Below are positions 1,887 through 45,570 of a DNA stretch of 64,000 nucleotides, in pieces. The notes below the pieces were generated by a model that was given only the letters and a program-made list of their open reading frames with translations, made no database searches and was not told the origin of the DNA. The translations under genes and the position numbers were made by a program. Numbering within the stretch: position 1 is the first letter of the stretch; the number at the start of each line of letters is the position of its first letter. The stretch is from an uncultured Pseudomonadota bacterium (lineage in GTDB: Bacteria; Babelota; Babeliae; Babelales; RVW-14), in contig CAZFHP010000001.1 in the NCBI GenBank assembly GCA_964519365.1, forward strand, positions 3 to 64,002, read 5' to 3'.

Positions 1887-2441
1887 ATGTTTAAAGTTAA
1901 TTACCGAATAACTGATACCATAGAAGAACTAAATAATCTTTCTGAACAAGAAATAGAAGAGGGCGGAGTTATCGAAGGATACTTTGAAATAGTCGTAAAC
2001 AATCAAAATTATGGTTATTTCAAAAAAGGCCCCCTTGAAAAGGATGAGCGCTGGAATGAATTAATAACCACCTGGTTTGAGCAACTATTAAAAGTTCTCA
2101 TGCTTTTAAAAAAAAAATCTGATTATGTTGTTTTAGATGATATAGATTCATACAATACCTTGTTAGAATTTAAACAATTAAAAAATAAAAATATATGCAT
2201 AAGCATCATCAATGCTAAAAAACAATACGGAGTCGACTGCATACAAACAACTCCTCCTGAAAATATCATTCCTTCTGATTGGGCAAACGAAGAAGTATCA
2301 TATGATGAAATGCATCATGAGATTATTAGTAAAGCCACTAAATATATCGCAGAAGTAGATACGATTAATCCGCGATTAGCAAATGGAGCAACGTTTAGTC
2401 GATTGAAAGAACTATTGCGTAAAGCAAAAAATCTTGCATAG
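1887..2441 (+). CDS. putative cognate immunity protein, copy 2 (184 aa)
   Basis: Starts 23 nt after the toxin-like ORF. Paralog of 493..1047. Shares the C-terminal DWANEEVSYDEMHHEII.K.TKYIAEVD.INPRLANGATF.RLKELLR..KNLA. Confidence 0.5.
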   Translation: MFKVNYRITDTIEELNNLSEQEIEEGGVIEGYFEIVVNNQNYGYFKKGPLEKDERWNELITTWFEQLLKVLMLLKKKSDYVVLDDIDSYNTLLEFKQLKNKNICISIINAKKQYGVDCIQTTPPENIIPSDWANEEVSYDEMHHEIISKATKYIAEVDTINPRLANGATFSRLKELLRKAKNLA

Positions 2442-11463: not shown

Positions 11464-12186
11464 ATGAATAGGACAGACCCAATAATCACGGTTATTTATG
11501 ACAATAACCCCTATAAAGAAAATCTAAAAACTGCATGGGGGTTTGCATGTCTTGTTCAAATAGCTCAAAACAATATTCTTTTTGATACCGGAGGAGAGGG
11601 GGATCTTTTATTAGAAAACATGAGAAAACTCAACATTGATCCTTCATTGATAAATATTGTTGTTATTTCACACGCTCATTGGGACCATATGGGTGGATTG
11701 GAAACGTTTTTAAATAAAAATTCCAATGTTACCGTTTATCTTCCAAGCTCTTCCCCAACAACACTTAAAGATATGGTCCGAAATAAAGGAGCAAAGATCG
11801 TTGAAATAAAAAACGATTATGCGATTTGTGAACATGTCATGACTACTGGTGAACTTGATAGCGACAAATTAAAAGAACAAGCTCTGGTAGTAGACAGTCA
11901 AAAGGGGTCCATAATAATAACTGGCTGTGCCCACCCAAAAATCATAAAAATAATAGAGAAAGCCAAAGAAATAGGCAAACAAAATATATTTTTTGTAATG
12001 GGCGGATTCCATTTTTATAAAACGCCCCCCGAAACTGTAAATAAGATTATAGCCAACTTTAAACAACTTAATGTTCAAAAAGTTAGTCCTTGCCATTGCT
12101 CCGGAGAGCAAGCTCAAGAATTATTTAAGAAAAATTATAACGAAAATTATCTACATGTTGGTGTAGGAAAAGTAATAACCCCCTAA
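11464..12186 (+). CDS. MBL-fold metallo-hydrolase (COG1237-like)
   Basis: Metallo-beta-lactamase motif VVISHAHWDHMGGL, plus downstream GCAHP and CHC ligand-like residues. Confidence 0.75.
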   Translation: MNRTDPIITVIYDNNPYKENLKTAWGFACLVQIAQNNILFDTGGEGDLLLENMRKLNIDPSLINIVVISHAHWDHMGGLETFLNKNSNVTVYLPSSSPTTLKDMVRNKGAKIVEIKNDYAICEHVMTTGELDSDKLKEQALVVDSQKGSIIITGCAHPKIIKIIEKAKEIGKQNIFFVMGGFHFYKTPPETVNKIIANFKQLNVQKVSPCHCSGEQAQELFKKNYNENYLHVGVGKVITP

Positions 12187-15825: not shown

Positions 15826-17109
15826 TTATCGTATGAAATCAAAAGTCCTGCTGTAATAACGCGAACCAAACAATCTCTCACGCTTCAACCACGCAAACAA
15901 CTCTTTACTACGTTGATCATTTTGATGGCAATAGCAAACATACCCATCTTCAAATTCTTCACTTCGCAAATAATATAGAATATCATCATCATCTTTACAA
16001 CCTAAAAATATAGCCCACCTTAACCAAAAACTTCTTTTGATTTTTCTATATTTTAATGGCTTAAAACAAAAAGATTCTTTTGTGCTAACTCGCCCCTTTT
16101 TAAAAGCAGAAACACAACAACTCGCACACATAAGCTTATATCCATTAATTGAACGCATTTCTCCGGTATATTCAAGCGGAATAGCAAGCTCTTGGTCATC
16201 ACTTCGCATTAAAAGAAATTGTCCTAAATCTCCTTTGGGTTCGTTCTTCCTAAATAGTTGACCAACCCCGTTCGCAACAAAAATATTCCAACATTCTTGA
16301 GGAAAACTCAAAACCTCGTTTGAACTATCAAATGCTACAAAGAAACCATCAGCTATCAACATCCCTTGCGATGGTGATAAAAGACTATACATTCGGCTAA
16401 GTGTTCCAAGAGGATCGACAAGGTGCCGAAGCGTCCAACTTGAAACAATTAAATCAACTTGCCCTTTAAGGGCAAAACCTCTTTTTTCAAATTCTTCATC
16501 AATGTTTTCAATTTTAAATTGATTTAGTCGACAATGCGTAATATTTCCACAACGCTCAACTTCTCTCTCACATTCTTTACCACCAGTAACACTAAAAATA
16601 TGAACCTTCTTTCCAGTCTTTTGACACTCTTCATCCTGTCCAAGAACACGCATAGCATGAGAGCCCCATTCACCAGTACCACAACCAACATCGATTATGC
16701 AAATCTCATTTTTCCCCTTAGAAAAAAGTTTTTTAAACACTAAATCATCATTCAACCCAAGTAAACCATAAGCCTCTTTACCTTTTTCAGCCCAGCTATA
16801 ACCGTTCTCTTTTTTATTTTTTTCAAACGCCTTATCAACAGCATCTTGCACAGCCCTTGGCCGGGCTCCAAGGACTATTTTCTGTGCTTGCTCATATGTT
16901 TCTTTCTTTTGAGTTAGTTCCTGCTCTGTTTTAGCTGTTTTTACAGAAGTCTCTTCAGGTTCTCTTTGTGACGCTGGAGCCTTTCTTTTTTCTCCCTTTT
17001 CTTTAGGGTGCTGCATAACTATGCAGTTATCAAAAGAAAAACTCGCAAGCAACACACTTGCTACAAATAAACGTTTTAAAAAAAATCGAGAAAATTTAGT
17101 AGAAATCAT
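15826..17109 (-). CDS. signal/anchor-bearing class I SAM-dependent methyltransferase (427 aa)
   Basis: N-terminal FFLKRLFVASVLLASFSF, then a Lys/Glu-rich linker, then motif I CIIDVGCGTGEWG. Paralog of 17695..18600. Confidence 0.6.
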   Translation of the reverse strand: MISTKFSRFFLKRLFVASVLLASFSFDNCIVMQHPKEKGEKRKAPASQREPEETSVKTAKTEQELTQKKETYEQAQKIVLGARPRAVQDAVDKAFEKNKKENGYSWAEKGKEAYGLLGLNDDLVFKKLFSKGKNEICIIDVGCGTGEWGSHAMRVLGQDEECQKTGKKVHIFSVTGGKECEREVERCGNITHCRLNQFKIENIDEEFEKRGFALKGQVDLIVSSWTLRHLVDPLGTLSRMYSLLSPSQGMLIADGFFVAFDSSNEVLSFPQECWNIFVANGVGQLFRKNEPKGDLGQFLLMRSDDQELAIPLEYTGEMRSINGYKLMCASCCVSAFKKGRVSTKESFCFKPLKYRKIKRSFWLRWAIFLGCKDDDDILYYLRSEEFEDGYVCYCHQNDQRSKELFAWLKRERLFGSRYYSRTFDFIR

Positions 17110-17694: not shown

Positions 17695-18600
17695 TTATTT
17701 GGGCCGCACTATCTTTCTTTTTTTAAACACCGTTACAAAGCCACTTGAGCACTGATACGATTTTGCGACTTGATGAATATCTCCTGTATATTCAGGAATA
17801 ATAAGTTCCTGGTTATTGTTTCGCATTAAAAGAAAATCATCTAAATCTTGTCCATCGTCATAAAAACGAAAGAATAAACTATTACTATCTACGCCAAGCA
17901 AACCTTTATTGTCCTTGGGAAAACACTGAATCTTTTTTGAGCTATCAAGGGCAAACCAAAAGCCGTTAGACATTATTATCCCTTGCTGTGAGGTTAACAA
18001 ACGATACATTCGTTTAAGCGTCCCAACAGGGTCAACTAAATGCCTAAGTGTCCAGCGAGAAACAATTAAATCAACTTTATTTTTAAGATCAAAGCCTCGT
18101 TTTAAAAACTCTTCATCAATATTCTCTATTTTAAATTGATTTAATTGATAATGCATAACGTTACCCTGACACGTAATAACTTCTTTACACTCTTGCCCGC
18201 CAGTAACACTAAAAATATGGATCTTTTTTGTCTTTTGATATTGTTTGCTCTTGCTAAGAACATCCATTGCATGGCGCCCCCATTTACCCGTTGCACAACC
18301 AACATCAATTATATAGATCTCATCTTTTTTAGGAAAAGCAAGCTTCTTAAGAACGCTATCATCATTAAGCCCAAATAGTTTATAACGAGAAGAGCCATTT
18401 TTCCCAGTCCATCTTTTCCCTTTTTTGTTTTTTTCAAAAGCTTTATCAACAGCCTCTTGTACTCTCTTGGGGCGATCTGATTCTACTTTTTTTTGTATTT
18501 TCCTGTGCTGTTTTTTCTTTTTTTTAGCAATGCAATCACCACAAAAAAAACTTGCAACCAAAACGCTTAAAAAAAATCGAAACAATAGAGCATAAAACAT
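17695..18600 (-). CDS. signal/anchor-bearing class I SAM-dependent methyltransferase (301 aa)
   Basis: N-terminal FFLSVLVASFF, a basic linker, and motif I YIIDVGCATGKWG. Shares RP.RVQ.AVDKAFEKNKK...LFGLNDD...LNQFKIENIDEEF with 15826..17109. Confidence 0.6.
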   Translation of the reverse strand: MFYALLFRFFLSVLVASFFCGDCIAKKKKKQHRKIQKKVESDRPKRVQEAVDKAFEKNKKGKRWTGKNGSSRYKLFGLNDDSVLKKLAFPKKDEIYIIDVGCATGKWGRHAMDVLSKSKQYQKTKKIHIFSVTGGQECKEVITCQGNVMHYQLNQFKIENIDEEFLKRGFDLKNKVDLIVSRWTLRHLVDPVGTLKRMYRLLTSQQGIIMSNGFWFALDSSKKIQCFPKDNKGLLGVDSNSLFFRFYDDGQDLDDFLLMRNNNQELIIPEYTGDIHQVAKSYQCSSGFVTVFKKRKIVRPK

Positions 18601-18692
18601 TTTATTCCCAAAAACGTAAGAAAATAAGCACTATCTTGAAAAAATTAGCATTTAACTTTTTTTGCATTTACTCTCCTAAAGAGGATTGAACA

Positions 18693-20330
18693 ATGTTAAA
18701 ATGCAAACAATTACTTATTGTAACAATAATAACAAGCGCTATCAATAGCATTCAAGCCCCCATAGTCTCTGCGATGCACCCACCCGTTGTACCTCTGAGC
18801 GAAAGAGACCTTGCAACCTTCAGACAAAATGTAGAACACGCCAACGAACGTGCTGAAGATGCCGTTGAAAAATCCGACCAGTGTCTCTCAGTCATTTGCT
18901 CAATAAACCGTGAAGCTCTTTCCGCAGTAGATAGAACACGCGACACCATAAATGCACTTCGCGAAACAACAGATCGCCTATCACAACAAACCCAAGAAAT
19001 TGCCCCGAGAATAGAGCAAGCACAAACTGCTACACGAAATTTAGAACAAGAGTATCAACGGCTCAATACTGCTATGGCACAAAACTTTGCTCAAAACATT
19101 ACACAAGCAGAAGAGCGATTATCAGCAGTTGCACAGCAAGAACGAGCTCTTGACGTGCAAGATCGAATCAGAATAGAACAAGCAAGCATACATGAAATGC
19201 AACAACAGGGAGTTTATGAACAAGCACAAAGAATTCAAGCACAAGCAACAATAAACGTCGAAAAAGAAAAGTGGAAAAATATTCACCAAATCTTAAATAG
19301 CTCAAAGCCCATAATAAAAATTGTATCGGCGATAATCGCTATTGCTTTAGGCGTTTATCTAATTAAGCATGGGATGCCTATGCTCCTTGATTACTTAACC
19401 GAACCAAGCGTTATAAAAGAAACATCTCGTATCGACTGGCTTGATTGGTTTGGACTTGATATTTGGCAAGACTCTTTAAAAGAAGATAGTAATCTTGACG
19501 ATCTTATTTTCACACCAAGCCTACATAAACAATTATTTGATCTTTTCCTACGCGTACAAACAGCTCACGAATATGATCAAACCCTTCCTAACGTATTATT
19601 TCATGGCCCTTCAGGAACAGGAAAAACAGCTGTTGCCAAAATACTAGCATATGTATCAGGCTTTGATTATGCTATCACATCAGGTTCAGAGTTTGCCAAA
19701 GATTTAAAAATAGCAACCAAAGAATTACATAATCTTTTAAACTGGGCAGAAGAAAGCGACCGGGGAGTTATTATTTTTATTGATGAAGCAGAATCACTCT
19801 TTGCAAACAGAAATCTTTCCACAACACCAAACGCCAAGCAAGACTTTATTAATACTTTTTTATCACTTATTTCAGATCAATCGCAAAAAAATATAATGTT
19901 TATTTTCGTAACAAATCATCCATTTAAGTTAGACGATGCAATTACTAATCGTATAGGAACAAGTATAAAATTCACATTACCAACAGCATTAGAACGAGAA
20001 CAAATTCTTTTAACATACCTTAATCAGTTTGCCAAAGAAAATAACGATGCAATCGTTGCGATACAACCAGAAGTTAAACAATCTCTTGCAAAATATGTCA
20101 CCAATTTTGAAGACGTTTGCCCAAGAGATCTTAAATTTATGGCTGAAAAAATGATCATCACAGCTCGACGACAAGAACCTCAAGAACTAACACCAGATAT
20201 CGTTCAAGCAATAGTTGACGAAAAGAAAGATGCCCTTGATCAAATAACACTTTGGAAAAAAGAACGCGAAAAATGGGTTGACGGTATCAAGTGGTCGCCG
20301 AACAAAACACTTATTTACTACACAGGCTGA
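18693..20330 (+). CDS. ATAD3-like AAA+ ATPase (signal peptide, Gln-rich coiled coil, TM helix, AAA domain)
   Basis: Walker A HGPSGTGKTAVAK and Walker B IIFIDEAESL. The TM and junction region ALGVYLIKHG...EPSVIKETSRI, plus GFDYAITSGSEFA and the AAA core, align collinearly with my recollection of human ATAD3A (AVGVYSAKNAT...KPSLVRETSRI, GMDYAIMTGGDVA). Confidence 0.65.
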   Translation: MLKCKQLLIVTIITSAINSIQAPIVSAMHPPVVPLSERDLATFRQNVEHANERAEDAVEKSDQCLSVICSINREALSAVDRTRDTINALRETTDRLSQQTQEIAPRIEQAQTATRNLEQEYQRLNTAMAQNFAQNITQAEERLSAVAQQERALDVQDRIRIEQASIHEMQQQGVYEQAQRIQAQATINVEKEKWKNIHQILNSSKPIIKIVSAIIAIALGVYLIKHGMPMLLDYLTEPSVIKETSRIDWLDWFGLDIWQDSLKEDSNLDDLIFTPSLHKQLFDLFLRVQTAHEYDQTLPNVLFHGPSGTGKTAVAKILAYVSGFDYAITSGSEFAKDLKIATKELHNLLNWAEESDRGVIIFIDEAESLFANRNLSTTPNAKQDFINTFLSLISDQSQKNIMFIFVTNHPFKLDDAITNRIGTSIKFTLPTALEREQILLTYLNQFAKENNDAIVAIQPEVKQSLAKYVTNFEDVCPRDLKFMAEKMIITARRQEPQELTPDIVQAIVDEKKDALDQITLWKKEREKWVDGIKWSPNKTLIYYTG

Positions 20331-20334: not shown

Positions 20335-21252
20335 ATGAAATATCGATATTTATTTTGTTGTATCACATGCTTTGTCACACTAAACATTTACTCTTTTTTA
20401 TGCGCACATAACGCACAAGCACACCCAATAGAAACTCCAAATATTATTTCAGGATACGAAAAAGACATAACACTTCTTGCCGAACATATTTACGACCTGC
20501 TTGAGCAAAAGCTCTCACTTGATCAAATCGCAGATATTTTCATAGAAAATCCAAACGGTACCTACAATATCGAGAATCTCACACAGTATATTCAAGAGTT
20601 ATTAGATCAAGATCTCTCAAAAGAAAAGATCATCAATATTATTGTTAAAAATAAAGAAGCAGAAGAGTTTTATGCCCACAAAAACTTTTGGGACAAAATA
20701 GAGCATGGGTATCTTACGTTCAAAATTATTATCATTGTTACTATCGTCACTATTATCAGTTATATGATATATCGTTATTGCAAAAACAATCAAGGCGGTT
20801 CTGGAAATGCCTCTGGAGCAGGGAGTAACCCCGTTCAAGAATCACACCCCGACCAAACACTTATAGATCCACCCCCACAGCCAGATCTACCACAACAAAC
20901 ACCCACTCAGCCAGAACCTCTAGAGCTGACCCCATCAGAAGAACCACAAAATCATTCAGAACCTGAACCACATAACCCACAAGAAGCAATAGAGCCACAC
21001 TCAATTCCGGAAGAAAACAATCAAGAAGAAGCCATACCACATATTCCCGAAGGCAATCAAATAACCCCTAATACTCCGCCGCTAGGGGGGCAAGAAACGC
21101 CGTCACAAGAAATACCTAATCCAGACCTCCCCCCCGCCCGCATACAACAAATACAACAAATACAACAAATACAACAAATACGAACTTCCAGATACTCCTC
21201 AACAGCCGGAGAACAATTTACACACTTTTCTCGTTTGAGATTAGATCTCTAG
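20335..21252 (+). CDS. membrane protein with Pro/Gln/Glu-rich C-terminal tail
   Basis: Starts 5 nt after the AAA gene. Signal-like MKYRYLFCCITCFVTLNIYSFLCA, a TM helix FKIIIIVTIVTIISYMIY, then a PQPDLPQQTPTQPEP...IQQIQQIQQIQQI low-complexity tail. Confidence 0.55.
   Translation: MKYRYLFCCITCFVTLNIYSFLCAHNAQAHPIETPNIISGYEKDITLLAEHIYDLLEQKLSLDQIADIFIENPNGTYNIENLTQYIQELLDQDLSKEKIINIIVKNKEAEEFYAHKNFWDKIEHGYLTFKIIIIVTIVTIISYMIYRYCKNNQGGSGNASGAGSNPVQESHPDQTLIDPPPQPDLPQQTPTQPEPLELTPSEEPQNHSEPEPHNPQEAIEPHSIPEENNQEEAIPHIPEGNQITPNTPPLGGQETPSQEIPNPDLPPARIQQIQQIQQIQQIRTSRYSSTAGEQFTHFSRLRLDL
21142..21180 (+). repeat. 9-bp coding tandem repeat (ATACAACAA x4 plus a partial unit)
   Basis: Four perfect tandem units encode the IQQ repeats inside ORF 20335..21252. 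Confidence 0.9.
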
Positions 21253-22701: not shown

Positions 22702-23103
22702 TTAAAAAATATCCAGCTGGTCACTTTCTGGTTCAGAAATTTTTTTCAAGACAAACCTCATAATGCTTTGCGCAGACTTAATGGCAATCTTGACGTCATC
22801 TGATTCTGGAATATCATGTTCTGTTGGATATCTAAACTTAGTTGCAAATGGATTAAGCTGCTCAACTATCTCGTTAAGTTTATTAAAATTTTGATCAATT
22901 TGAACACACAACCAGTTAAGTTTAATAAGATCATGCGTTTTTAGAATTTCTTGTTTTTGAAAAGCTAAATAACCCTTCAGAGATTTCTCAGATGCTTGCT
23001 GGCAATGATACACCGCTGTTGAAAACAACTCATTCTTTAAAAGCACTTTAGCAGAAAGCAAATCTGTTTTCGCGATCTTCAACCAGTCTTCATGCCCGAG
23101 CAT
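22702..23103 (-). CDS. HEPN domain protein (HepT-like toxin of an MNT/HEPN pair)
   Basis: About 130 aa and helical. It has the R-x4-H motif (KFRYPTEH) near the C-terminus and overlaps the upstream nucleotidyltransferase gene. Confidence 0.75.
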   Translation of the reverse strand: MLGHEDWLKIAKTDLLSAKVLLKNELFSTAVYHCQQASEKSLKGYLAFQKQEILKTHDLIKLNWLCVQIDQNFNKLNEIVEQLNPFATKFRYPTEHDIPESDDVKIAIKSAQSIMRFVLKKISEPESDQLDIF

Positions 23104-23413
23104 AAATAAGCTCTCCGTCCCTTTTAATCTTATGGCTAAGCGTTGTTACATTATTTGAAATACGATCAAATTCTTCTTTGGTTTGAACAATAAGATCCTT
23201 TGATATCCCCTCTAAACCACGAAGCGCCTTGTACCCAATAAGAGGCCGCTTATACGTTTTTTGTTCAGATTCTTCGACAACAATCAATAAATCTAAGTCG
23301 CTATCTTCTGTTGGGGTACCCCATGCATATGATCCAAAAAGATAAATTTCTACAGGGTCATACGCCTTTACAAGCCGACTTTTTATCTCTTCTATAACCT
23401 CTTTACTTACCAT
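23090..23413 (-). CDS. minimal nucleotidyltransferase (MntA-like antitoxin)
   Basis: The LFGSYAWGTPTEDSDLDLLIVV motif matches GSxxxGxxxxxSDxDL. The start could also be 23431 or 23449. Confidence 0.75.
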   Translation of the reverse strand: MVSKEVIEEIKSRLVKAYDPVEIYLFGSYAWGTPTEDSDLDLLIVVEESEQKTYKRPLIGYKALRGLEGISKDLIVQTKEEFDRISNNVTTLSHKIKRDGELIYARA

Positions 23414-23499
23414 GCATCCCTCTACTTCCATACCAACAATACTAATCAATCTGATATTAATTAGATTGTACCGCCAAAAAGTAAAAAATCAAAAAAGCT

Positions 23500-24969: not shown

Positions 24970-25259
24970 AAGTATAATCTTTCGGTTATAAAAAAGTAAC
25001 AGTTATATCCTCGGTGTGTTTTCATGAGTTAAAGTCAAAAGCAAACTCTGCAAGAATTTGTCACTTTTATAAAACCGTCGATTACTGCTTAACGCTTGAA
25101 TAAGCCCCCCAACGATTCTCTTTCATTTAAGAAATCTCTATCTCAAATAAACACATATAAACTCTTAGAATTAGAAGTCTATATAAACACATCATATCAC
25201 AATACTTCTATTTGTCAAACACAAACAAAAACCGTAAGAAAAATACTATTTTGCCTCTG

Positions 25260-26186
25260 CTATCGCTCTAAAAGCCGTCGTTTTAACCCACGATACTTCC
25301 ATCTAACCTGATCAAGAAGCTTTTTATACACAGACTTGCCTTTCAAGACACTGGGATATCGTTTTATAACGTCTTCATGCAAGCGTAAGAACTTTTCACC
25401 CGTTTTTGCCTGATCAGCATAAAACTTTTCTATAATCTTGCCCAAATTGTTTTCTTGAGGATCATAAAAAATATCTTCCCATTTTTTGAGATAATTTTTG
25501 AGATCATGCTTAAACTTTGCATAATTCGTCTTACGAACGTTTACATTTGCATGCGGATAATGCTCAACATACGAATCAGGCGAATCGATAACTTCATAGC
25601 CCTTATCCCACATTTTTAAACATAAATCACCGTCACCGTTATAAAAAAAGAACGTTTGCTCGTCAATATAACCAACATCTTCTAATGCTCGCTTAAGATA
25701 CATGCCATGGTTAACATACATTTTTTCACCAAGCGTACACCCAACATGATAAGACTTATCACATGACCAATCTCGAAAGTAAAACGCAACCGCTCCAACT
25801 TTCTTCCCATTATTCAAAGCACTTTCAAAACACGAATACCCATTAATAATCGCACCGGGAACAAGTAAGCAATCGTCACTTAACATACATACGTATTTAC
25901 CCTGAGATATTTTAAAGCCCAAATTCATAAAATATCCCCACGACCGTCGCTCGATTTTTTTGCCAAGCCAATCCCCCCGATTATGCTGCACAATCGTAAT
26001 AATATCTTTTTGTGCGCGTAACCATTCAAGCGAACCGTCGTCAGAACCCCCATCTATTACGATTATTTCATAGCATAAGTTAAAACGAGAATTCTGAAAC
26101 TCTTCGCGAATACTATTAACCGTCAGGGGCAAAAACTTTATGCGATTATATGATCCTAAAACAACAGAGATTATGGGCTTGTTCAT
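25260..26186 (-). CDS. glycosyltransferase family 2 (GT-A)
   Basis: ISVVLGSYNR...VIDGGSDDGS...MLSDDC. About 70% identical by eye to 32117..33052. Confidence 0.75.
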   Translation of the reverse strand: MNKPIISVVLGSYNRIKFLPLTVNSIREEFQNSRFNLCYEIIVIDGGSDDGSLEWLRAQKDIITIVQHNRGDWLGKKIERRSWGYFMNLGFKISQGKYVCMLSDDCLLVPGAIINGYSCFESALNNGKKVGAVAFYFRDWSCDKSYHVGCTLGEKMYVNHGMYLKRALEDVGYIDEQTFFFYNGDGDLCLKMWDKGYEVIDSPDSYVEHYPHANVNVRKTNYAKFKHDLKNYLKKWEDIFYDPQENNLGKIIEKFYADQAKTGEKFLRLHEDVIKRYPSVLKGKSVYKKLLDQVRWKYRGLKRRLLER

Positions 26187-27334
26187 GCAATCTCTTTTAT
26201 CGCATTTACGACCAGTTCTATTTGTTCCTGCGTTATGCCAAGGCCACTTGGAATATAAAAACCTCGTTGTGCTAATTTTTCAGCGACAGGATAACGTTCT
26301 CCAAAAAAAAGTCCCAGTTTATAAAAAACAGGCTGCTTGTGCATACACCAAAAAAATGGGCGTGTTTCTATGTTTTTCGCTGCAAGTTTTTTCATAATCA
26401 CCTGAGCGTCATACTCTACCGAATCTTTTAATACAAGTCCATATACCCAATAAATATTTTCAGCATAATCTGTTCGAGCTAGTGGCCTTTGAAAAATATC
26501 GATATCCTGCAAGGCTACATCGTACGATTTACCAATAACACGTTTTTTTTCAATAAAAGAATCTAAGCGTTCCAACTGGGCCAGCCCAACGGCTGCTTGC
26601 AAATTTGTCATGCGCGCACTAAAACCAAGGCCTTCATGGACAAAACGTTGCTCCGGCTTAAAACACAAATTTCTCAGCATATTACTTCGTCTTGCTAGGT
26701 TTTCGTCATCTGTTAGAATCATGCCACCTTCACCTGTTGTCACATGTTTGTTTGGATAAAAACTTACGACACTTATATCACCAAAACTCCCACATGGCTT
26801 ATCTTTATACGTTTGCCCAATAACTTCAGCCGCATCTTCAATTATTTTTAAATCATATTTTTGAGCAAGCTCAAGAATTGGATCCATGTCGACAGGAAGC
26901 CCATACGTATGCACAACCATGATAGCTTTTGTTTGCATAGTAATTTTGCGCTCTATTTGACTAACATCAATGTTCCATGTTTCTGGGTCGCTATCAACTA
27001 ATACAGGTATTGCTCCAGACCTAACAATAGCGTTAGCACATGAAATAATAGCAAATGTCGGCATAATAACTTCGTCACCAACACCAATTTCCAACGCTTG
27101 TACAGCAATATCAAGCGCCACAGACCCACTAGAAACAGCAATCGCATGCTTTCGCAAAGCTCTTTGCGCAAAAGCTTCTTCAAACTTTTTTACAAACGGC
27201 CCATCAGACGATATCCACCCAGTATCTATGCATTCAGCTAAATATTTTTTTTCGTTACCTGTTAACAGTGGTTCATTAACAGGAACAGAAATAACTTTAT
27301 CTTCTTGTACGCTAGTATTTTCAATAGTTTCCAT
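26183..27334 (-). CDS. DegT/DnrJ/EryC1/StrS family sugar aminotransferase
   Basis: GNEKKYL...C...GWISS.GPFV..FE..FA. Also DAAE, SFYPNKHVTTGEGGM with the PLP lysine context, and FCMHKQP. Confidence 0.8.
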   Translation of the reverse strand: METIENTSVQEDKVISVPVNEPLLTGNEKKYLAECIDTGWISSDGPFVKKFEEAFAQRALRKHAIAVSSGSVALDIAVQALEIGVGDEVIMPTFAIISCANAIVRSGAIPVLVDSDPETWNIDVSQIERKITMQTKAIMVVHTYGLPVDMDPILELAQKYDLKIIEDAAEVIGQTYKDKPCGSFGDISVVSFYPNKHVTTGEGGMILTDDENLARRSNMLRNLCFKPEQRFVHEGLGFSARMTNLQAAVGLAQLERLDSFIEKKRVIGKSYDVALQDIDIFQRPLARTDYAENIYWVYGLVLKDSVEYDAQVIMKKLAAKNIETRPFFWCMHKQPVFYKLGLFFGERYPVAEKLAQRGFYIPSGLGITQEQIELVVNAIKEIA

Positions 27335-27366
27335 AATTTCTTCTCACTTTCTAACAAACGTCATGC

Positions 27367-27795
27367 CTACTTGATAACAACTTGTGATCTTTTTATTCCA
27401 TCAAAACGCGTCTTATCGCTTACCCCAACATAAGGCCCTTGCTTTACTTCTATTATCTCAACGTCTTCTAGTACCTCAAATCCATGGCCACCACGCCCAA
27501 GTAACATAACATCTCCTGCATGCAAAATTTTACTTTCAAGATATTTCTTATGTTCATCGTAAAGATCTACCTGTATTTTTCCCTTTTTGATAAACAAAAC
27601 TTCTTCCGTATAAACGACTTCGCGCAAAACATGATTATGCACATGTGCCGGAATACTATCTCCCGCTGGGCGTTTTATGCAACCCAACTGCTGAGAAAAA
27701 TTATCTGGTGTAAAAAACGAAGTTCCATCTTGAGAATAATTTCGTCTCAAAATTACAGCCATTATTTTTTCGTTATGATACACACGTTCAATCAC
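27367..27795 (-). CDS. cupin-fold sugar-nucleotide-modifying protein (WxcM/FdtA- or WbuC-like)
   Basis: 142-aa cupin (PAHVHNH...EEVLFIKKGKIQVDLYD...GGHGFEVLEDVEIIEVKQGPY) translationally coupled to the aminotransferase. Confidence 0.4.
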   Translation of the reverse strand: MIERVYHNEKIMAVILRRNYSQDGTSFFTPDNFSQQLGCIKRPAGDSIPAHVHNHVLREVVYTEEVLFIKKGKIQVDLYDEHKKYLESKILHAGDVMLLGRGGHGFEVLEDVEIIEVKQGPYVGVSDKTRFDGIKRSQVVIK

Positions 27796-29024
27796 ATAGA
27801 CTCTCTTATTTTATTCAAAAACACGTTATACGATTTTTCATACGAGCATAGCATGTTATAACGCTCTTTAATATTTTTTACATACCAATCATAATTATTT
27901 ATAACGTTAACGACTTTACCATGCAAATCACTAACCCCCGCCTGTTCTCCAAAGCCATTATTTTCAGTAAAATCAGAAAGGCCTATCAAGCCTTTTGAAA
28001 CAAGAACAGGTTTGTTGTGCGATAAAAATTTATGATACTTTCCCGAAGCCATTCCCATATACGTTATATTGTCATCACGTTCTGCTTGATAAAAACAAAG
28101 CCCTATATCGATACACGACATGAGATAATTAATGTCACTATTACACAAAACGTCTTCTTTGATATAAACATGCTTCGAATCAAAAGATTTCAAAAGTCGT
28201 TTTATGTCATACATAAAACCATCGCCAGACCACCCAGAAAACACCCACAGATAATCTTTTAACAAAACAATCTTTTCAAATAATTCTAACGAAAGAACCC
28301 AGCGCTCCAAACTCCCGATATACAAAATCTTGGGCTTTCGAGATTTAAAAATCGCATCAAAGCCCGAAACAACCGAATGTTTGTTTTCTAACTCTTGGAT
28401 ATACGCATTAGGCACCGTAAAAGCATGAATAGCTTTATTCCCATAATATTTAAAGAAAAGCTTGAGTCTATCGTGATCTTGAATAATCAGATAATCTATC
28501 GCGTTAAGCGCTCGAGCAAATAATACTCGTTTCAAGTCTATCCCATATACAAGTCTATAAAAAAAAGATCGTACAATTCGTTTTACGTATTTACTTTTAT
28601 TTTCAAGTAAAAGCGTTCCCAAAAAATTATTTCGCACGAACACTAAAAATACTTTCGTCACGAACTTTTCACACACGTTTTTTTTTGCTTGCCGCTTATA
28701 ATCTGAAAGCTCCAAACTGTGAAAAATAATCACAGGTTTAAGTTTACATAAAAAAGAAACCATACCCAAAAGCTCCATATCTGATGGCTCGTAAGCAATA
28801 ACATAATCGTAATTATTAATATCTCGATATAAAATCGATATATTTGAAAAAAAATCCTGCGTAAGCTTAATATGCCCAGAGACATAAACACCAAAAGAAA
28901 CAAGAGCCCCTGCTGTTGCTATATGATTTACAAGGCCTTTAGACGCTAATAAATATAGTGCGTTATAAACAGATGGAAATGTATCCAATCTTCGCGTAGA
29001 ACCTAAAATATGCAAAATCTTCAC
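27792..29024 (-). CDS. hypothetical protein, possible GT-B-type glycosyltransferase
   Basis: 410-aa ORF within the glycan cluster. MKILHILGS... is a GT-B-like N-terminus. I recognise no clear catalytic motif. Confidence 0.3.
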   Translation of the reverse strand: MKILHILGSTRRLDTFPSVYNALYLLASKGLVNHIATAGALVSFGVYVSGHIKLTQDFFSNISILYRDINNYDYVIAYEPSDMELLGMVSFLCKLKPVIIFHSLELSDYKRQAKKNVCEKFVTKVFLVFVRNNFLGTLLLENKSKYVKRIVRSFFYRLVYGIDLKRVLFARALNAIDYLIIQDHDRLKLFFKYYGNKAIHAFTVPNAYIQELENKHSVVSGFDAIFKSRKPKILYIGSLERWVLSLELFEKIVLLKDYLWVFSGWSGDGFMYDIKRLLKSFDSKHVYIKEDVLCNSDINYLMSCIDIGLCFYQAERDDNITYMGMASGKYHKFLSHNKPVLVSKGLIGLSDFTENNGFGEQAGVSDLHGKVVNVINNYDWYVKNIKERYNMLCSYEKSYNVFLNKIRESM

Positions 29025-29053
29025 TATTACTCGTCACACGTTAATCTATAATT

Positions 29054-29947
29054 TTATTTTTCGTTCACAGGTTTTCTTACAACACACGCATGCATGTGAT
29101 TATGCAAAAACGGAACTTTCTTAAATAATTTATTAAGAAGCACTCCCGACTTACTAACTTTAAATTCCCAATTCTTAAAAGAAACAAACGGCCTAAAAAC
29201 TGAGTGGAACAACCCATCAATATGAGCAATGGGAGTACTCTCAATAATATCAAACCCAGCCCGCTTACAAACAGTCTCAAATTGTTTCGGCGTAAAACGA
29301 TACTCAAAAAAATTACCCCGCTGAGGATCAATGTAATACGAAAAGCGCTTTCTATTCCATTTTCTATGTGGCTTGCTAAAAGCCTTTCGAACAAGATTAT
29401 TTTTTCTTGGGTCAATAAAGCTTAATGCATAACTTATTCTGCGCAAAAGATTAAAACTAGGCACCGTAATAATTCCAATCCCGCCTGGCTTTAAAACATT
29501 ATAAAGAGCATTCAGCGGGGCATCAGGCCCATCCGGAAAATGTTCAATAAGGCCATACGACAAAACCATATCAAACGAATTCAAGGGATATTTCATGTTT
29601 AAAATATCACCGTGCTCTATATTTAAGTCAGGAAACGATTTATTAAGCCAGGCAACAGAATCTTGATTTATCTCTATCCCATAGATATTTTTTAAACCTT
29701 TGTCATAAAGATATTTGACAACACGCCCAAGACCACAACCTGTTTCAAGAATTTTCCAATTTTTATTTTTCAAATATTTTAACGTAATGGCAACATCGTC
29801 GGTTCGCTCACAACTCTTTAATAATTGATCAAACTCATTATGTTGCCAAGAAAAAACGATACTCTTTTTATTCTCATTGTCCTTTTGCTCTTGCATCGCT
29901 ACAAACCCTTTTATAAATTTACACCAATATTTTTCCCAAAAAAGCAC
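29054..29947 (-). CDS. class I SAM-dependent methyltransferase
   Basis: Motif I ILETGCGLGRVVKYL, plus FDMVLSYGLIEHF and LKPGG. The likelier start is MQEQKD at 29896. Confidence 0.7.
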   Translation of the reverse strand: MLFWEKYWCKFIKGFVAMQEQKDNENKKSIVFSWQHNEFDQLLKSCERTDDVAITLKYLKNKNWKILETGCGLGRVVKYLYDKGLKNIYGIEINQDSVAWLNKSFPDLNIEHGDILNMKYPLNSFDMVLSYGLIEHFPDGPDAPLNALYNVLKPGGIGIITVPSFNLLRRISYALSFIDPRKNNLVRKAFSKPHRKWNRKRFSYYIDPQRGNFFEYRFTPKQFETVCKRAGFDIIESTPIAHIDGLFHSVFRPFVSFKNWEFKVSKSGVLLNKLFKKVPFLHNHMHACVVRKPVNEK

Positions 29948-31094
29948 TCATGTCAGATGAAAACTTTTCTCGTGAAAATTCTTTTAACGCAAAACTCTGA
30001 CAGGAAGCTATCTGATCTTCAAGCTCATCTTTTGATAACGACATAGCCTGATTCACTACATTTTCAATTTCACTTGTTGCACATGTTTCTAGATACAGCC
30101 CAGCATTATTCGGCAACGTAATCCCATTATTTCTACTTATGATTGGAAATAGTCCTAACTGCAAACACGTAACAACAGCTGGCGATATTCCTTCACTACA
30201 CGATGGGGCAATAAAACAAAAGACCCGCTTAATAATTTCTATAAATTTATCGCTACTTGGGAACAAACAACCATAATATCTAATATTAGAACAGTGAAAA
30301 AGTTCTTGTTCGTAAATTTTTAGAAAATCTCGTTCAGATTCTAGCCGTCCTATTACGTTTAAAACAAGATTTTTATTTTTTTTAAAAACATCGAGAACTA
30401 AATCTAATCCCTTGTGAACAGCCCCACCACCATAGTGCCACAAAAATTCTCGCGTTTCTGGAACATAATCGTCTGAACTTTTAATATATTTTAATCGTGA
30501 CGCAGAAACAGTAACTGTCGAAATCTTTTTTCTATATTCTTCTGGATACGTACTTAACGTATGCTTATTGCCAATCAAAGAACAGGTGTCAGCTAAGCGT
30601 AACGATCGCTCAGCCCAATCTAAATAATCAACAATTCGCTTAGGGGTATAAAATGCTTTTGTTCGCTGTTCTAACGCATGAACCCGTTTTAACTCAGCGT
30701 CCCGCGAAAACCATACATGACTTGTAGTCAAATGCAAAAGCTTTTTTGTTTCTTTTCCAACAACAGGAGTAAGTCTCTGCAAATTAACGTGTATGTCAAA
30801 CACAATATCATACGAACATTTAGGCCAAAAGCGCCTATTGTTCCAGTTTATGCAATCAACAATAAAACCATATGAATTAAAAATTCTGACAATTTCGCGA
30901 CTCTCCCAAAGGTTACTGTGAGCATTAAATCGAATGTCATTGGGTTTCCATAAAACAGCCTGCTCTAAGTAGCTAAAAAGAACTCTCCCTATCGCCTTTT
31001 TATGTTTAGGGTAAACCGTAATCGCACGCTCCCAACTATTCTGATCCCTACCTAAAATTTTTTTGGCTACTTTTTTTAACAACTGAATACTCAC
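29919..31094 (-). CDS. putative GT-B glycosyltransferase (GT4-like C-terminal half)
   Basis: C-terminal APSCSEGISPAVVTCLQLGLFPIISRNNG resembles the E-x7-E region of GT4 enzymes. The N-terminal half is unassigned. Confidence 0.4.
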   Translation of the reverse strand: MSIQLLKKVAKKILGRDQNSWERAITVYPKHKKAIGRVLFSYLEQAVLWKPNDIRFNAHSNLWESREIVRIFNSYGFIVDCINWNNRRFWPKCSYDIVFDIHVNLQRLTPVVGKETKKLLHLTTSHVWFSRDAELKRVHALEQRTKAFYTPKRIVDYLDWAERSLRLADTCSLIGNKHTLSTYPEEYRKKISTVTVSASRLKYIKSSDDYVPETREFLWHYGGGAVHKGLDLVLDVFKKNKNLVLNVIGRLESERDFLKIYEQELFHCSNIRYYGCLFPSSDKFIEIIKRVFCFIAPSCSEGISPAVVTCLQLGLFPIISRNNGITLPNNAGLYLETCATSEIENVVNQAMSLSKDELEDQIASCQSFALKEFSREKFSSDMSAFLGKILV

Positions 31095-31106
31095 ACATGG
31101 CCCTTT

Positions 31107-32120
31107 TTATGATCTTGTTCTTTGCATAATCTTTTCTTTGAAAACACGATATTTTTGCTTTAAAAACGCTTGTGCTTTTTGTGATGGAATACAAAACTTT
31201 AATGCTTTTTTCACCACACTTACACCCATACTAAAAATAGAACGTTTTGGCATTACCGTTAAAATTACATCATAAAGCTTTTTGTCTAACGATTTATCCC
31301 ATTGTATATTGTTAGGGGCAACAAGCAGATCGCTTTCTATCGCTCGAACAGGCATCTGGTGAAAAATACTTTTAGTACCATTACCATGAGCCCCCGAAAA
31401 TCCTATATTTGATACAAGATTAACAACAGAAACAATAGAAAAACCCTGCTGTTTTATACACGCATAAGCCCACTGATAATCCCATGTATCAACATCTTTC
31501 TTGCATACTTTTTTTAAATTATCTACCCAAAACTCTCTAACCCGTCGATCCTTTAAAAAAACTTCTAAGCTTCCTAAAACTTCTTTCGAATCCCATTTTT
31601 CTATGTCATATTCAAAAAACTTCCATGCGCGTCGCCACGTCGCCCACCCCCAAATAGAATAATATTTCGAAAAGAAGAAACTTTCTTTTCTGTTCACTTT
31701 GTTAAAAAAATAACTCGTTCCGCTAATCATCATAACGTTTTCGTGATCTTTATAGTCTTTGAGTAATCGCTGACAAAAATAAAAAAAAGAATCGTCTGGC
31801 ACACAATCATCTTCCAAGATTATGCCTTCTTCAACATGATCAAAAAACCAGTCAATAGCCGAACTTATCGCTTTACCACATCCCAAATTTTCATCTCGAA
31901 ATAACGTTTTAACTTCACAGTCCCAATCAACAGCCTGTATAATATTTCTGGCTGCGTTACATTCTTTTTCTTCCCCATCAACCCCTACCCGCGGCCCATC
32001 AGCAGCTACAAATAAATATTTCGGCTTTACTTTTTTTATCTTTTGAAAAACTCTTTGAGCATGTTCTGAACGATTAAAAATGATAAATAAAACAGGTGTA
32101 AAAAAAGCATTACTGCTCAT
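31107..32120 (-). CDS. GT-A glycosyltransferase with GnT-I (GT13)-like motif
   Basis: PVLFIIFNRSEHAQRVF...LFVAADGPR...GCGKAISSAIDWFF..VEEGIILEDDCVPDDSFFYF resembles the EDD region of GlcNAc-transferase I-type enzymes. An ATGA overlap at 32117-32120 joins it to the upstream gene. Confidence 0.5.
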   Translation of the reverse strand: MSSNAFFTPVLFIIFNRSEHAQRVFQKIKKVKPKYLFVAADGPRVGVDGEEKECNAARNIIQAVDWDCEVKTLFRDENLGCGKAISSAIDWFFDHVEEGIILEDDCVPDDSFFYFCQRLLKDYKDHENVMMISGTSYFFNKVNRKESFFFSKYYSIWGWATWRRAWKFFEYDIEKWDSKEVLGSLEVFLKDRRVREFWVDNLKKVCKKDVDTWDYQWAYACIKQQGFSIVSVVNLVSNIGFSGAHGNGTKSIFHQMPVRAIESDLLVAPNNIQWDKSLDKKLYDVILTVMPKRSIFSMGVSVVKKALKFCIPSQKAQAFLKQKYRVFKEKIMQRTRS

Positions 32121-33052
32121 AACCAAAACCCTTCTTTTATTTTTTTGCGAACAGCACGCACTCTCCATTTTATAGCCCCATATAACTCTTGATGCCATAC
32201 TGGCCCTTGAAACAATTTTGGATGTGTCTTTAAAACGACTTCATGCTCCTGTTTAAATCGATTACACGTCATAGCTTTATCAAAAAATTTCTTCTTTTTA
32301 AGATCTCCTAGATTGCGTGTCGTAAGTTCAGGTATTTTTTTTGTCCACCGAGCCAAAAATTTCTTGTAATCATGATCAGTGTCTTTTTTGTTCGATTTAC
32401 GCACATTCACATTCGCATGGGGATAATGCTCAAGATACGAATCTGGCGAATCTAGTATTTCATATCCTGCATCCCACAATCTAAAACACAAGTCTATATC
32501 TGCAAAATAAAAGTTATACGTATCTTCGTCTATATAATTTACTTCTTGTAAGGCTGATCTTAAATACATGCCGTGATTTACATACATGATCTTTTTAGCG
32601 GGCATGCCAACTTTATAAGCCTCTTCGAGAAAAGACTCTCGCCAATAAAAAGCAAGCGCCCCTACTTTCTTTTTTTCTTTTAACTTTTGCTCAAATAAAT
32701 CATACCCATTTTTTATAGCCCCAGGCACAAGAATACAATCGTCGCTTACCATACAAATATATTTACCTTGGGCCATTTTAAACACCAAGTTCATGAAGTA
32801 CCCCCATGACTTTCTTTCGATCTCTTTCCCAAGCCAATCGCCACGATTATGCTGCACAACCGTAATAATATCTTTCTGCTCGCAAAGCCATTCTAGCGAT
32901 CCATCATCAGAACCCCCATCGACGACTATAATTTCATAGTTTATTTTTGGTAAAAAATTATAAAACTCTTCACGAATACTATTTATAGCTAACGGCAAAA
33001 ATTTTATACGATTATATGAACCAAGAACTACAGAAATTATAGGATTCTTCAT
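32117..33052 (-). CDS. glycosyltransferase family 2 (GT-A), paralog of 25260..26186
   Basis: ISVVLGSYNRIKFLPLAINSIREEF...VVDGGSDDGS...MVSDDC. Confidence 0.75.
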   Translation of the reverse strand: MKNPIISVVLGSYNRIKFLPLAINSIREEFYNFLPKINYEIIVVDGGSDDGSLEWLCEQKDIITVVQHNRGDWLGKEIERKSWGYFMNLVFKMAQGKYICMVSDDCILVPGAIKNGYDLFEQKLKEKKKVGALAFYWRESFLEEAYKVGMPAKKIMYVNHGMYLRSALQEVNYIDEDTYNFYFADIDLCFRLWDAGYEILDSPDSYLEHYPHANVNVRKSNKKDTDHDYKKFLARWTKKIPELTTRNLGDLKKKKFFDKAMTCNRFKQEHEVVLKTHPKLFQGPVWHQELYGAIKWRVRAVRKKIKEGFWL

Positions 33053-33079
33053 ACAATCAAGCCTTCTTTTACTTAAAAA

Positions 33080-33955
33080 CTAAAATAACAGCTTATAATT
33101 AACGCGAGGGAAAACATCCAATAATCCTCCAGCGGTTGCATTATAAATTTTTATATTGTTAGAATCGCAAAATCGCTTTATTTTCTTATACTGATTCCAC
33201 ATCGCTGTTGTCATTTGCAAAACATGTTCAAAATCAGGGCCATTTATCTTATTCCAATCAGGAAAACCATCATTCGCAAATAAATTCCCTTTATAAAAAT
33301 GTAACTGTTGTTTCTGATGAAACTTTGCTATCCAATCATGATCCAAACCAATAAGATATATTTCTTTAAAACCCATATAAATCGCTACCAAAATAGATTG
33401 TAATGCTACATTCGCAACATGAAATGTCTGAGTTGAAAGATCAACTCCATTGGCAAAAATATAATCCAACTTATCATGAAAATCAACATATTGAACACTA
33501 ATTTTATTCTTAAATAACCGATGTTTTTTTATAAACGCATAATCTCCAAAATGTGTAAAAAAGTTTTTACATTTGAGCTTACATTCCAATTCAGAATAAA
33601 ACTTCAACCCAAAATCTTCAGACAAATGTAGGTGATTAATTAAGCCACTATAAATATGGTACCGAGGACTAACTCTGTGATAATCTTTATGTAGATAAAA
33701 TAAATTCAACCCGATACAAATTTCTTGAGATAAAACCGTCAAATCTTGAGTTAAAAGCGATTCTCCTGTTCCAATAATAAAACACCTATCATTTTTATGA
33801 ATATTTTTAAAACAAACATTTTCTCGTAATATATGATTATACTTTCTAGAATAAGCACGCTTAGCTTTTCTTACACACTTTTGCCCAACAGAACAAACTC
33901 CTTCTGGAACAAACCACTTTGATATATTTTTCACAATCCTAACAACTGTACTCAT
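33080..33955 (-). CDS. DUF115 / MptE-like (Maf-like) protein, putative nonulosonic-acid transferase
   Basis: DRCFIIGTGESL and ALQSILVAIYMGFKEIYLIGLDHDW match the two conserved blocks of DUF115 motility-accessory-factor-type proteins. It sits next to the NeuB and CMP-synthetase genes. Confidence 0.5.
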   Translation of the reverse strand: MSTVVRIVKNISKWFVPEGVCSVGQKCVRKAKRAYSRKYNHILRENVCFKNIHKNDRCFIIGTGESLLTQDLTVLSQEICIGLNLFYLHKDYHRVSPRYHIYSGLINHLHLSEDFGLKFYSELECKLKCKNFFTHFGDYAFIKKHRLFKNKISVQYVDFHDKLDYIFANGVDLSTQTFHVANVALQSILVAIYMGFKEIYLIGLDHDWIAKFHQKQQLHFYKGNLFANDGFPDWNKINGPDFEHVLQMTTAMWNQYKKIKRFCDSNNIKIYNATAGGLLDVFPRVNYKLLF

Positions 33956-34526
33956 TATGCCTCCTACATAAAAAGTTTGCTCTTAAATCTATAATTTTTC
34001 AAAGTCTTTATACGGAAAAACATCTAAAATTGTTCGTTTTGAAAGATTCTAAATAGCGATATCTTTAAAAAAAACAATACTGTTTAATCACCAGAAGCTG
34101 CTCAAAAAATTCAATTGTTGTTTCACATGACTTATATTTTTCTGAATACGGCTTCCTATCAGAACAAATACCTGTCATCTTATTTGTATACTTGGTAGAC
34201 ACAACCTGATCAAGACGACTCAGCTTTTTATCATAGAAATACGTATTGTCTGAACCCTTAACTTTTGAGTCTTTTGCCCAAAAATAAGCATTCTATCTCT
34301 TAAATTTTATCCTGATATATCGTCCTCTCCAAATAACACCTTGTCGTACAAAAAAAGATACCAATTTGCTAAAAAAATACCTCTAATATTACTCCCAAAA
34401 TCTAAACTTACACATTCCGCCATAAATAAACCAACCCCAACCAATCACTTTTAATTGATTGACCATACATACTTTTTATAATATCTTAAAATTCAAAAAT
34501 AAAAAACTAAATTCAAGGGGAATTTA

Positions 34527-35558: not shown

Positions 35559-35566
35559 AAAATATC

Positions 35567-40524: not shown

Positions 40525-40527
40525 TTG

Positions 40528-45560: not shown

Positions 45561-45570
45561 AGTTTTAATC

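Follow-up and report, generated by a model that had tools for sequence, protein, structure and literature searches.

The gene at positions 18693 to 20330 of a 64,000-nucleotide stretch of bacterial DNA (contig CAZFHP010000001.1; we call the whole stretch the window) encodes an AAA+ ATPase that, judged from its sequence, is specifically homologous to the eukaryotic protein ATAD3, and the homology runs from just before its transmembrane (TM) helix all the way to its C-terminus. Animals, plants and Plasmodium cannot do without ATAD3, and in people it is mutated in neurological disease; how it works is unsettled. A study of 2026 still presents it as a eukaryotic protein, formerly thought limited to multicellular organisms (PMC13249166). 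What, then, might such a protein do in a bacterium, and how did the two lineages come to have it?

Strictly speaking, the window protein is no ATAD3 ortholog but a relative of the family in bacteria, because its contig and its neighbours are bacterial, a Shine–Dalgarno sequence stands before it, and it lies in an operon. The larger reading—that the ATAD3 lineage has here a true member in bacteria, a bitopic AAA+ ATPase of the inner membrane with the topology and mechanism proposed below—is one that we consider probable. “Family A” is our own name for the bacterial group to which the protein belongs. The parts of the gene, and the gene that follows it, are these:

18680..18685, plus strand: Shine–Dalgarno-like AGAGGA, by sequence reading, 7 nt ahead of the ATG
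18693..20330, plus strand: AAA+ ATPase gene, ATAD3 family, bacterial family A; open reading frame of 545 residues with an ATG start
18693..18773, plus strand: predicted Sec-type signal peptide, residues 1–27 (hydropathy and sequence)
18801..19205, plus strand: long heptad-periodic helix, residues 37–171 (AlphaFold2 model and periodicity)
19308..19376, plus strand: single TM helix, approximately residues 206–228 (hydropathy 2.4–2.8; AlphaFold2 helix 204–235)
19377..19442, plus strand: membrane-to-ATPase junction, residues 229–250, with the motif P238-S-V-I-K-E-T-S245-R, the counterpart of ATAD3 KPSLVRETSR
19578..19982, plus strand: AAA core, residues 296–430 (PF00004 at residues 301–428, E 1.7e-24)
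19983..20297, plus strand: AAA lid and C-terminal helices, residues 431–535 (sensor-2 R478; AlphaFold2 confidence, pLDDT, >90)
20335..21252, plus strand: partner gene, 305 residues, after a 4-nt gap behind the AAA stop codon

Extent and specificity of the homology to ATAD3

A first-pass annotation of this DNA had read the open reading frame as signal peptide, coiled coil, single TM helix and AAA domain, in the order familiar from ATAD3, and both the parts (by hydropathy, the AlphaFold2 model and the PF00004 match) and their order have held up. The signal peptide consists of a charged n-region (MLKCK), a hydrophobic core at residues 7–25 and a cleavage-type site between VSA and M. In the AlphaFold2 model, which was made from a 115-sequence alignment and has a pLDDT (predicted local distance difference test) of 84, residues 37–171 form one unbroken helix of ~135 residues, ~20 nm long if straight (135 residues × 0.15 nm), and the power of its 3.5-residue hydrophobic periodicity is 97.5 against 10.2 ± 9.9 for shuffled versions, with 0/2000 shuffles as high. 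To call the coiled coil Gln/Glu-rich was roughly right (residues 30–195 are 13.9% Q, 12.7% A, 11.4% E and 9.6% R). The core carries Walker A (GPSGTGKT, 305–312), Walker B (IIFIDE, 360–365), the sensor-1 residue N408 and a lone arginine finger, R420. A 115-sequence alignment of bacterial proteins and vertebrate ATAD3 shows no variation at K311, D364, E365, N408, R420 and R478, nor at P238 and S245 of the junction. By alignment, all of the ATPase catalytic residues are intact.

How much of this likeness belongs to ATAD3 in particular, and how much is simply the common property of AAA proteins? Against primate ATAD3A (P0125), BLASTP gives the window protein 139 bits (E 1e-39, 28% identity, 341 residues), pairing its residues 195–523 with residues 235–573 of the subject across the pre-TM segment, TM helix, junction, AAA core and lid; the paired stretches include GVYxxKxG in the TM helix (its GVY..K.G signature is common to the TM helix of ATAD3, with which profile comparison aligns it too), PSVIKETSRI with PSLVRETSRI at the junction, and the AAA core. 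Xenopus ATAD3 scores 131 bits. The alignments to human ATAD3A that the first-pass annotation had given are therefore reproduced, although its phrase “residue by residue” overstates a match of 28% identity, which is nonetheless specific and well beyond chance.

The reference set of ATAD3 proteins was fetched with a human ATAD3A sequence as the query, and it contains named primate and vertebrate proteins at up to 99% identity to that query (chimpanzee ATAD3A). With Xenopus ATAD3 as its query, an exhaustive HMMER search over 1.84 billion representative proteins returned 805 proteins at E <= 1e-30, and the window protein matches 146 of the best 150 ATAD3-family representatives at 127–167 bits and 27–34% identity. 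Sampled names among these representatives include Phytophthora, pineapple and MMETSP protists, and it is on such a sample of names plus one contig check that the label “eukaryote” rests. A word-indexed protein search with the window protein returned no eukaryotic ATAD3.

One might object that this is an ordinary bacterial AAA protein (FtsH-, CDC48- or SpoVK-like) whose likeness to ATAD3 is convergent or confined to the generic core. Pfam does give it a generic AAA domain only, and NCBI calls its relatives “AAA family ATPase” and the Chlamydiae one FtsH. Yet the match to ATAD3 reaches beyond the AAA core and stays significant when the core is taken away: for a test segment made up of the 103 residues ahead of Walker A (pre-TM, TM, junction and linker, with the P-loop core excluded), hhalign of family A against eukaryotes gives 98.5% probability (E 2.9e-15), and reversed controls give 0.2%. 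ATAD3 scores are also three to four times the per-domain scores of any other AAA protein, the best AAA domains of solved structure (CDC48, Rix7, p97, NSF, AFG2 and YME1) reaching ~42 bits per domain and the top curated prokaryotic family 53 bits. Pfam finds no M41 peptidase, second AAA domain or N-domain, and the window protein and ATAD3 have an indel and several motifs in common. That the whole likeness is generic or convergent strikes us as hardly credible.

The details of those common features repay a closer look. Relative to CDC48-like AAA proteins, the second region of homology in ATAD3 and family A has a 2-residue deletion that leaves it one arginine (A[IV]x--[NDR]R versus ALLRPGR), and both have lost the aromatic-hydrophobic-Gly pore loop 1 (AKITDLNxAN in family A and AK--DLKIATK in the window protein versus K[WF]xGESE). 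The sensor-2 arginine and the P..[VL][VI].E[TS]S junction are further derived traits that set the two apart from CDC48-like proteins. Foldseek comparison of the window model with the PDB finds generic AAA proteins only (FtsH, p97 and proteasome ATPases), and does so because the PDB copy searched holds no solved ATAD3 structure; ATAD3A itself has the same PDB neighbours as the window protein, in identical order. We also looked for placement among ordinary bacterial AAA families with no homology at the TM junction, and this does not hold, because outside its own bacterial family the nearest proteins are ATAD3 and the TM-junction homology is significant. As for anti-phage defence ATPases, the PADLOC matches (IetA, 56 bits; TRIP13, 53 bits) are generic AAA similarity, well below the ATAD3 scores, and were set aside.

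The N-terminal half is another matter. The first-pass annotation had pointed to the ATAD3 N-terminal domain (DUF3523) as a place to look for homology, and here the expectation was disappointed: a Pfam search finds no match of the window protein to PF12037 (ATAD3_N/DUF3523) at E <= 1. Four of 33 family members do pass the PF12037 gathering score of 25, among them P0095 with 45 bits (E 8.8e-12); the matches in relatives depend on the TM-proximal part, and that of P0095 vanishes once this part is cut off. The coiled coil is, on these profile comparisons, an architectural equivalent of the coiled coil of ATAD3, and homology between the two is not demonstrable.

Bacterial families and the origin of ATAD3

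For an ATAD3-like gene in a bacterium, the first-pass annotation had offered two explanations, a host-to-bacterium transfer or a rare bacterial relative. Rare it is not. Family A comprises at least 115 clusters above 244 bits, at 39–56% identity (the next match, CDC48, has 99 bits), and besides it there are families B and C (again our names) and scattered single genes. As for the distribution among related bacteria, which the annotation had wanted checked, the named sources of family A are all Dependentiae, TM6 or Babeliales. Several family A records from metagenome-assembled genomes (MAGs) carry the label “uncultured Pseudomonadota.” Some contigs bear two or three family A copies, and a species-level genome collection has the family in 11 loci, all from Dependentiae-type MAGs. 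Its build is regular, with a signal-type segment in 79/103 members, a TM helix in 94/103 and the junction motif in 101/103. The junction motif is found in 114/119 vertebrate ATAD3 proteins as well; a signal-type N-terminus is found in 73/114 members of family B and in 0/119 vertebrate ATAD3.

More distant relatives of like build come from a Chlamydiae MAG, an Oligoflexales MAG and two unclassified MAGs. All four score higher to the ATAD3 lineage (family A or eukaryotic) than to CDC48, and for three of the four the score to eukaryotic ATAD3 exceeds the one to family A. The Chlamydiae protein (P0410, L016:2933-4696) has 152 bits to an ATAD3-family representative versus 84 bits to CDC48, and its NCBI label, “ATP-dependent zinc metalloprotease FtsH,” is probably a misannotation. 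The unclassified MAG CSMAG_1513 has two ATAD3-like genes (L014:271-975 and L014:3905-5260), ~3 kb apart and separated by a gene for a 447-residue membrane protein.

A profile built from these four relatives found family B, with >100 further clusters, and the members of B that bear a name are Dependentiae, Babeliales and Chromulinivorax; over the junction segment, hhalign gives 98.7% for family A versus B and 98.3% for B versus eukaryotes. Family C is a smaller group around P0378 (L083:627-2234), which also takes in L121-L124. Its members have a signal-type N-terminus and are 35–41% identical to eukaryotic ATAD3 (207–246 bits), and P0378 aligns with ATAD3A across 490 residues. The gene of L124 is bacterial, to judge from its neighbours on a 275-kb contig of 28.5% GC, which encode a penicillin-binding protein, thioredoxin reductase, RarA and RsmA; another family C member matches, in metagenome and in GC, the family A locus of a named Dependentiae MAG. 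The build of families B and C and of the single genes is a signal-type N-terminus, an ectodomain and a TM helix, then a P..[IV][IV].E[TS]S junction, then an AAA domain of ATAD3 type. The mean distance from family A to the other bacterial ATAD3-like groups is 1.6–1.7, like that to eukaryotic ATAD3, and within family A it is 0.6. Eukaryotic ATAD3 is nearer to families B and C than to A, and C is nearest of the three.

The trees, which the first-pass annotation had also proposed, were made by neighbour joining with a Kimura-type correction and bootstraps, over 290–308 columns from the TM helix to the lid; they rest on distance methods only, with CDC48-like proteins as the only outgroups. Three such trees part the ATAD3-like group, family A included, from the CDC48-like outgroups with 92, 99 and 71.5% bootstrap support. 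Family A is monophyletic (100%) and lies outside the eukaryotic clade, family C is monophyletic (93.5%), the eukaryotes are monophyletic at 64.5–74%, and a clade of all the bacteria appears in 0/200 bootstraps. With the outgroup as root, the backbone takes the form of a ladder: two single genes, then family A, then family B, the Chlamydiae gene and P0378/C, with the eukaryotes on top. Its internal branches are short and weakly supported, and we do not take its order as the direction of a transfer, because long-branch attraction of the faster bacterial families toward the outgroup would give the same order.

Could the gene simply have been picked up, not long ago, from a host? ATAD3 is widespread among eukaryotes, and its bacterial carriers belong mostly to eukaryote-associated groups (Dependentiae and Chlamydiae), as one would expect of such an acquisition by the window lineage. 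However, no eukaryotic sequence is >34% identical to the window protein, and the members of family A have themselves drifted apart, to 39–56% identity over at least 115 clusters. The gene is at home in the window by composition (GC z = 0.77; GC3, the GC content of third codon positions, z = -0.67; codon usage typical), and it comes with a bacterial signal peptide, a Shine–Dalgarno sequence and an operon partner. Since family A is monophyletic, is not nested in the eukaryotes and has native composition, the recent form of the transfer that had been proposed is to our minds a very slim prospect. The split of family A from eukaryotic ATAD3 is, on these comparisons, ancient. An ancient transfer is a distinct hypothesis, and it may have run in either direction.

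One form of that hypothesis deserves to be spelled out. Perhaps the ATAD3 lineage diversified first in bacteria, and the eukaryotic stem gained its ATAD3 from a Dependentiae-type parasite. There are at least three deep bacterial families (A, B and C), and the eukaryotes are one clade within the bacterial ladder, with C nearest; we think this history possible and would not bet on it. If it were true, eukaryotes would owe to a parasite a protein that is essential for organising the mitochondrial inner membrane and that would be neither a eukaryotic invention nor an alphaproteobacterial inheritance, and the bacterial proteins would be working examples of an ATP-driven machine across both membranes.

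Two further observations belong to the ATAD3 family at large. A set of ATAD3 paralogs of 700–870 residues (P0355, L084:8001-10379; P0322, P0352, P0369, P0373 and P0375) has an endoplasmic reticulum-type signal peptide and a Cys-containing N-terminal extension, and two of them have weak Peptidase_S74 matches. The P0355 gene is intronless, its contig carries the eukaryotic genes CSN8, TMEM120 and MIF4G, and proteins of this type may be non-mitochondrial or complex-plastid ATAD3 paralogs of protists. A scan of viral contigs gave generic AAA matches only, at 24–32% identity.

Proposed topology, partner gene and possible function

Where would such a protein sit? ATAD3 holds its coiled coil in the mitochondrial intermembrane space and its ATPase in the matrix (PMC10419812), its coiled coil oligomerises the protein, and it acts between the mitochondrial membranes (PMC10419812, PMC13249166). 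The signal peptide and the single TM helix of the window protein suggest an equivalent placement, in which a Sec signal would send the coiled coil out into the periplasm, the TM helix would serve as a stop-transfer anchor, and the ATPase would stay in the cytoplasm, the compartment assigned to it because ATP is available there. We hold this topology to be very likely. It agrees with that of the first-pass annotation, which had equated the outside with the intermembrane space and the cytoplasm with the matrix.

The AAA gene is not alone. The gene that follows it after 4 nt appears to be co-transcribed with it as a two-gene operon, and a homologous or like-built gene lies directly downstream of the AAA gene in 11/11 family A loci of the genome collection (9/11 by BLAST match, L010 and L012 as like-built by eye) and again in the named TM6 genome GCA_000989955.1; one MAG with two paralogous AAA genes has a separate partner gene for each. 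The partner has a signal peptide, a helical ectodomain of ~100 residues, one TM helix (at ~127–145) and a long Pro/Glu/Gln-rich tail, which is predicted to be cytoplasmic. It matches no Pfam family, and its single-sequence AlphaFold2 model is poor (pLDDT 48). Many of its orthologs (L003-L013; L120:7650-8501) end in two [IV]x[YI]AK[SK]IGL motifs; the window partner is without these and has IQQIQQIQQIQQI in their place. Beyond the partner gene, no synteny was found between the window and related family A loci.

From these pieces we draw, tentatively and by analogy with ATAD3, a picture that we rate at somewhat below an even chance: a ring with stalks reaching into the periplasm that, together with the partner, organises or remodels an envelope-spanning contact. 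The ring would assemble on the cytoplasmic face of the inner membrane, as classical AAA proteins do; the ~20-nm stalks would bundle and extend over the periplasm toward the peptidoglycan or the outer membrane; ATP-driven movements of the ring would be transmitted through the conserved junction and the TM helices; and these movements, with the partner protein, would organise or remodel the contact. That is, the machine would be the counterpart of ATAD3 in its role of linking and organising the two mitochondrial membranes. We favour a scaffold or remodeller over a threading unfoldase because pore loop 1 is degenerate, as it is in ATAD3.

The main functional rival is precisely such an unfoldase, or an extractase, anchored in the membrane like a protease-less FtsH, Msp1 or Bcs1, whose ring would thread membrane proteins and remove or remodel them. 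The disordered tail of the partner would then be its adaptor or substrate, and the coiled coil would be a periplasmic sensor or a handle for oligomerisation. The fold and the nearest solved structures are those of FtsH, p97 and the proteasome ATPases, the catalytic residues are intact, the partner's tail of ~150 disordered residues lies on the ATPase side of the membrane, and the motifs at the ends of many ortholog tails could dock on the ring. What speaks against it is that pore loop 1 is without the aromatic-hydrophobic-Gly motif of threading AAA proteins, that the second region of homology has one arginine only, and that the partner in the window is itself without the YAKSIGL motifs. We judge an extractase unlikely, and still worth bearing in mind.

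Dependentiae are obligate intracellular parasites of protists, and one might imagine a more adventurous role, that of a host-directed effector that mimics ATAD3 and inserts in the mitochondrial or vacuolar membranes of the host. That lifestyle, the several family paralogs per genome, the fast-evolving ectodomain and the adjoining putative secreted methyltransferases with signal peptides are all what an effector might lead one to expect. But a protein with a cleavable Sec signal and then one stop-transfer TM helix is predicted to stay in the inner membrane of the bacterium, the members of the family are conserved and their catalytic residues invariant, the locus has no secretion-system context, and a conserved, co-transcribed bitopic partner of matching topology looks much more like part of a resident envelope machine. 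We consider the effector quite improbable.

Several points weigh against our own preferred reading of the window protein as an inner-membrane member of the ATAD3 lineage, and they are best put together. Its topology, the cleavage of its signal peptide, its oligomeric state and its ATPase activity are predictions, and its function as an envelope tether is modelled on ATAD3, a protein whose way of working is itself unsettled. A eukaryotic N-terminal hidden Markov model scores bacterial ectodomains no higher than their reversed or shuffled versions, and the coiled coil alone gives weak hhalign values (42% in global mode versus 0.1% for controls, and 11% in local mode). The ectodomain is the least conserved part of family A (0.31 in the helix region versus 0.81 in the AAA core) and the most variable in length (111 to 347 residues), which fits a spacer or a fast-evolving interaction surface. 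Several paralogs per genome are odd for a single housekeeping machine, and the window bacterium is probably one of the Dependentiae on the taxonomy of its homologs alone.

Novelty, neighbourhood and known systems

A full-text literature search found no paper connecting ATAD3 to Dependentiae or to bacteria. Automated annotation in IMG already names several homologs “ATAD3A/B,” and because of this, the raw detection is not new; the novelty lies in recognition and analysis. What is new is the TM-junction homology, the derived ATPase traits held in common, the diversification of the bacterial proteins into several families, the Sec-dependent topology (as proposed) and the conserved partner gene. 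One set of homologs thus joins an ATAD3-type junction, derived ATPase traits, what would be an equivalent topology and a conserved partner. It could offer simpler proteins for structural and biochemical work on ATAD3, it opens the origin of ATAD3 to phylogenetic testing, and, through family A, it points to an envelope machine of Dependentiae that has yet to be characterised.

The AGAGGA ahead of the gene lies inside the 92-bp intergenic region between the AAA gene and its divergent upstream neighbour. Promoter and terminator scans of the surroundings gave background, and we claim no promoter, since promoter-like matches were no commoner there than in shuffled sequence. The window is JGI metagenome contig Ga0115649_1001955, and the neighbours of the AAA gene in it are of bacterial kind: genes for an RF-1-domain protein, pyrroline-5-carboxylate reductase, rubrerythrin, a HEPN/nucleotidyltransferase pair, a DEAD-box helicase and glycosyltransferases. 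Other features of the window are these:

493..1047 and 1887..2441, plus strand: two paralogs of 184 residues (MFK[IV]NYRIT...EGYF...), with one gene between them
about 11464..12186, plus strand: metallo-beta-lactamase-fold gene with an Apyc1 (anti-Pycsar) match (precomputed Pfam)
15826..17109 and 17695..18600, minus strand: two paralogous class-I S-adenosylmethionine methyltransferases (Methyltransf_23), directly upstream of the AAA gene and divergent from it, both with a signal-type N-terminus and a common RPxxVQxAVDKAFEKNKK segment; they may be secreted or effector-like enzymes
about 22702..23431, minus strand: HEPN and nucleotidyltransferase (MNT-type) pair (precomputed Pfam)
about 25000..55000, mostly minus strand: long cluster of sugar-nucleotide, glycosyltransferase and NeuB-like genes (polysaccharide or nonulosonic-acid biosynthesis), with GC skew negative in nearly all 2-kb bins and a cumulative skew that reaches -5.3

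How does the protein compare with systems that are already known? With CDC48/p97/VAT and Rix7, it has the classical AAA fold in common, and these are the top PDB matches of both the window protein and ATAD3A. They are soluble proteins with tandem AAA domains and an N-domain, without the TM helix, junction or coiled coil; the window protein has one AAA domain only and scores 39.5 bits with the CDC48 model TIGR01243, whose cut-off is 803.

FtsH comes nearer in plan, as a classical AAA protein anchored in the inner membrane with its ATPase in the cytoplasm and an extracytoplasmic N-terminal part, and it is among the top structural matches. However, the window protein lacks the pair of TM helices found in FtsH, its small alpha/beta domain in the periplasm, its aromatic pore loop, the two arginines of its second region of homology and the M41 zinc protease (HEXXH) at its C-terminus. 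The FtsH models of NCBIfam give it 32–40 bits against cut-offs of 600–1008, and no Peptidase_M41 match is found.

Eukaryotic ATAD3 (ATAD3A/B, Drosophila bor, and the plant and apicomplexan ATAD3 proteins; PF12037 plus PF00004, K17681) differs from the window protein, too. The two are only 27–34% identical; the window protein has a Sec-type signal peptide and no detectable ATAD3_N, it lacks both the proline-rich N-terminus and the second hydrophobic segment (TM1), and it comes from a two-gene operon with a bitopic partner, in a bacterial host with several paralogs per genome. What the two have in common is the order of their parts (coiled coil, amphipathic pre-TM segment, TM helix, junction, linker, AAA core and lid), an ATAD3-like spacing in which the TM helix lies ~90 residues upstream of Walker A and is followed by the junction, and a core with a single arginine and 2-residue deletion, a non-aromatic pore loop 1, a sensor-2 arginine and an invariant Trp after helix 2. 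In both, if our placement of the window protein is right, a coiled coil lies between two membranes and an ATPase in the compartment that holds the ATP.

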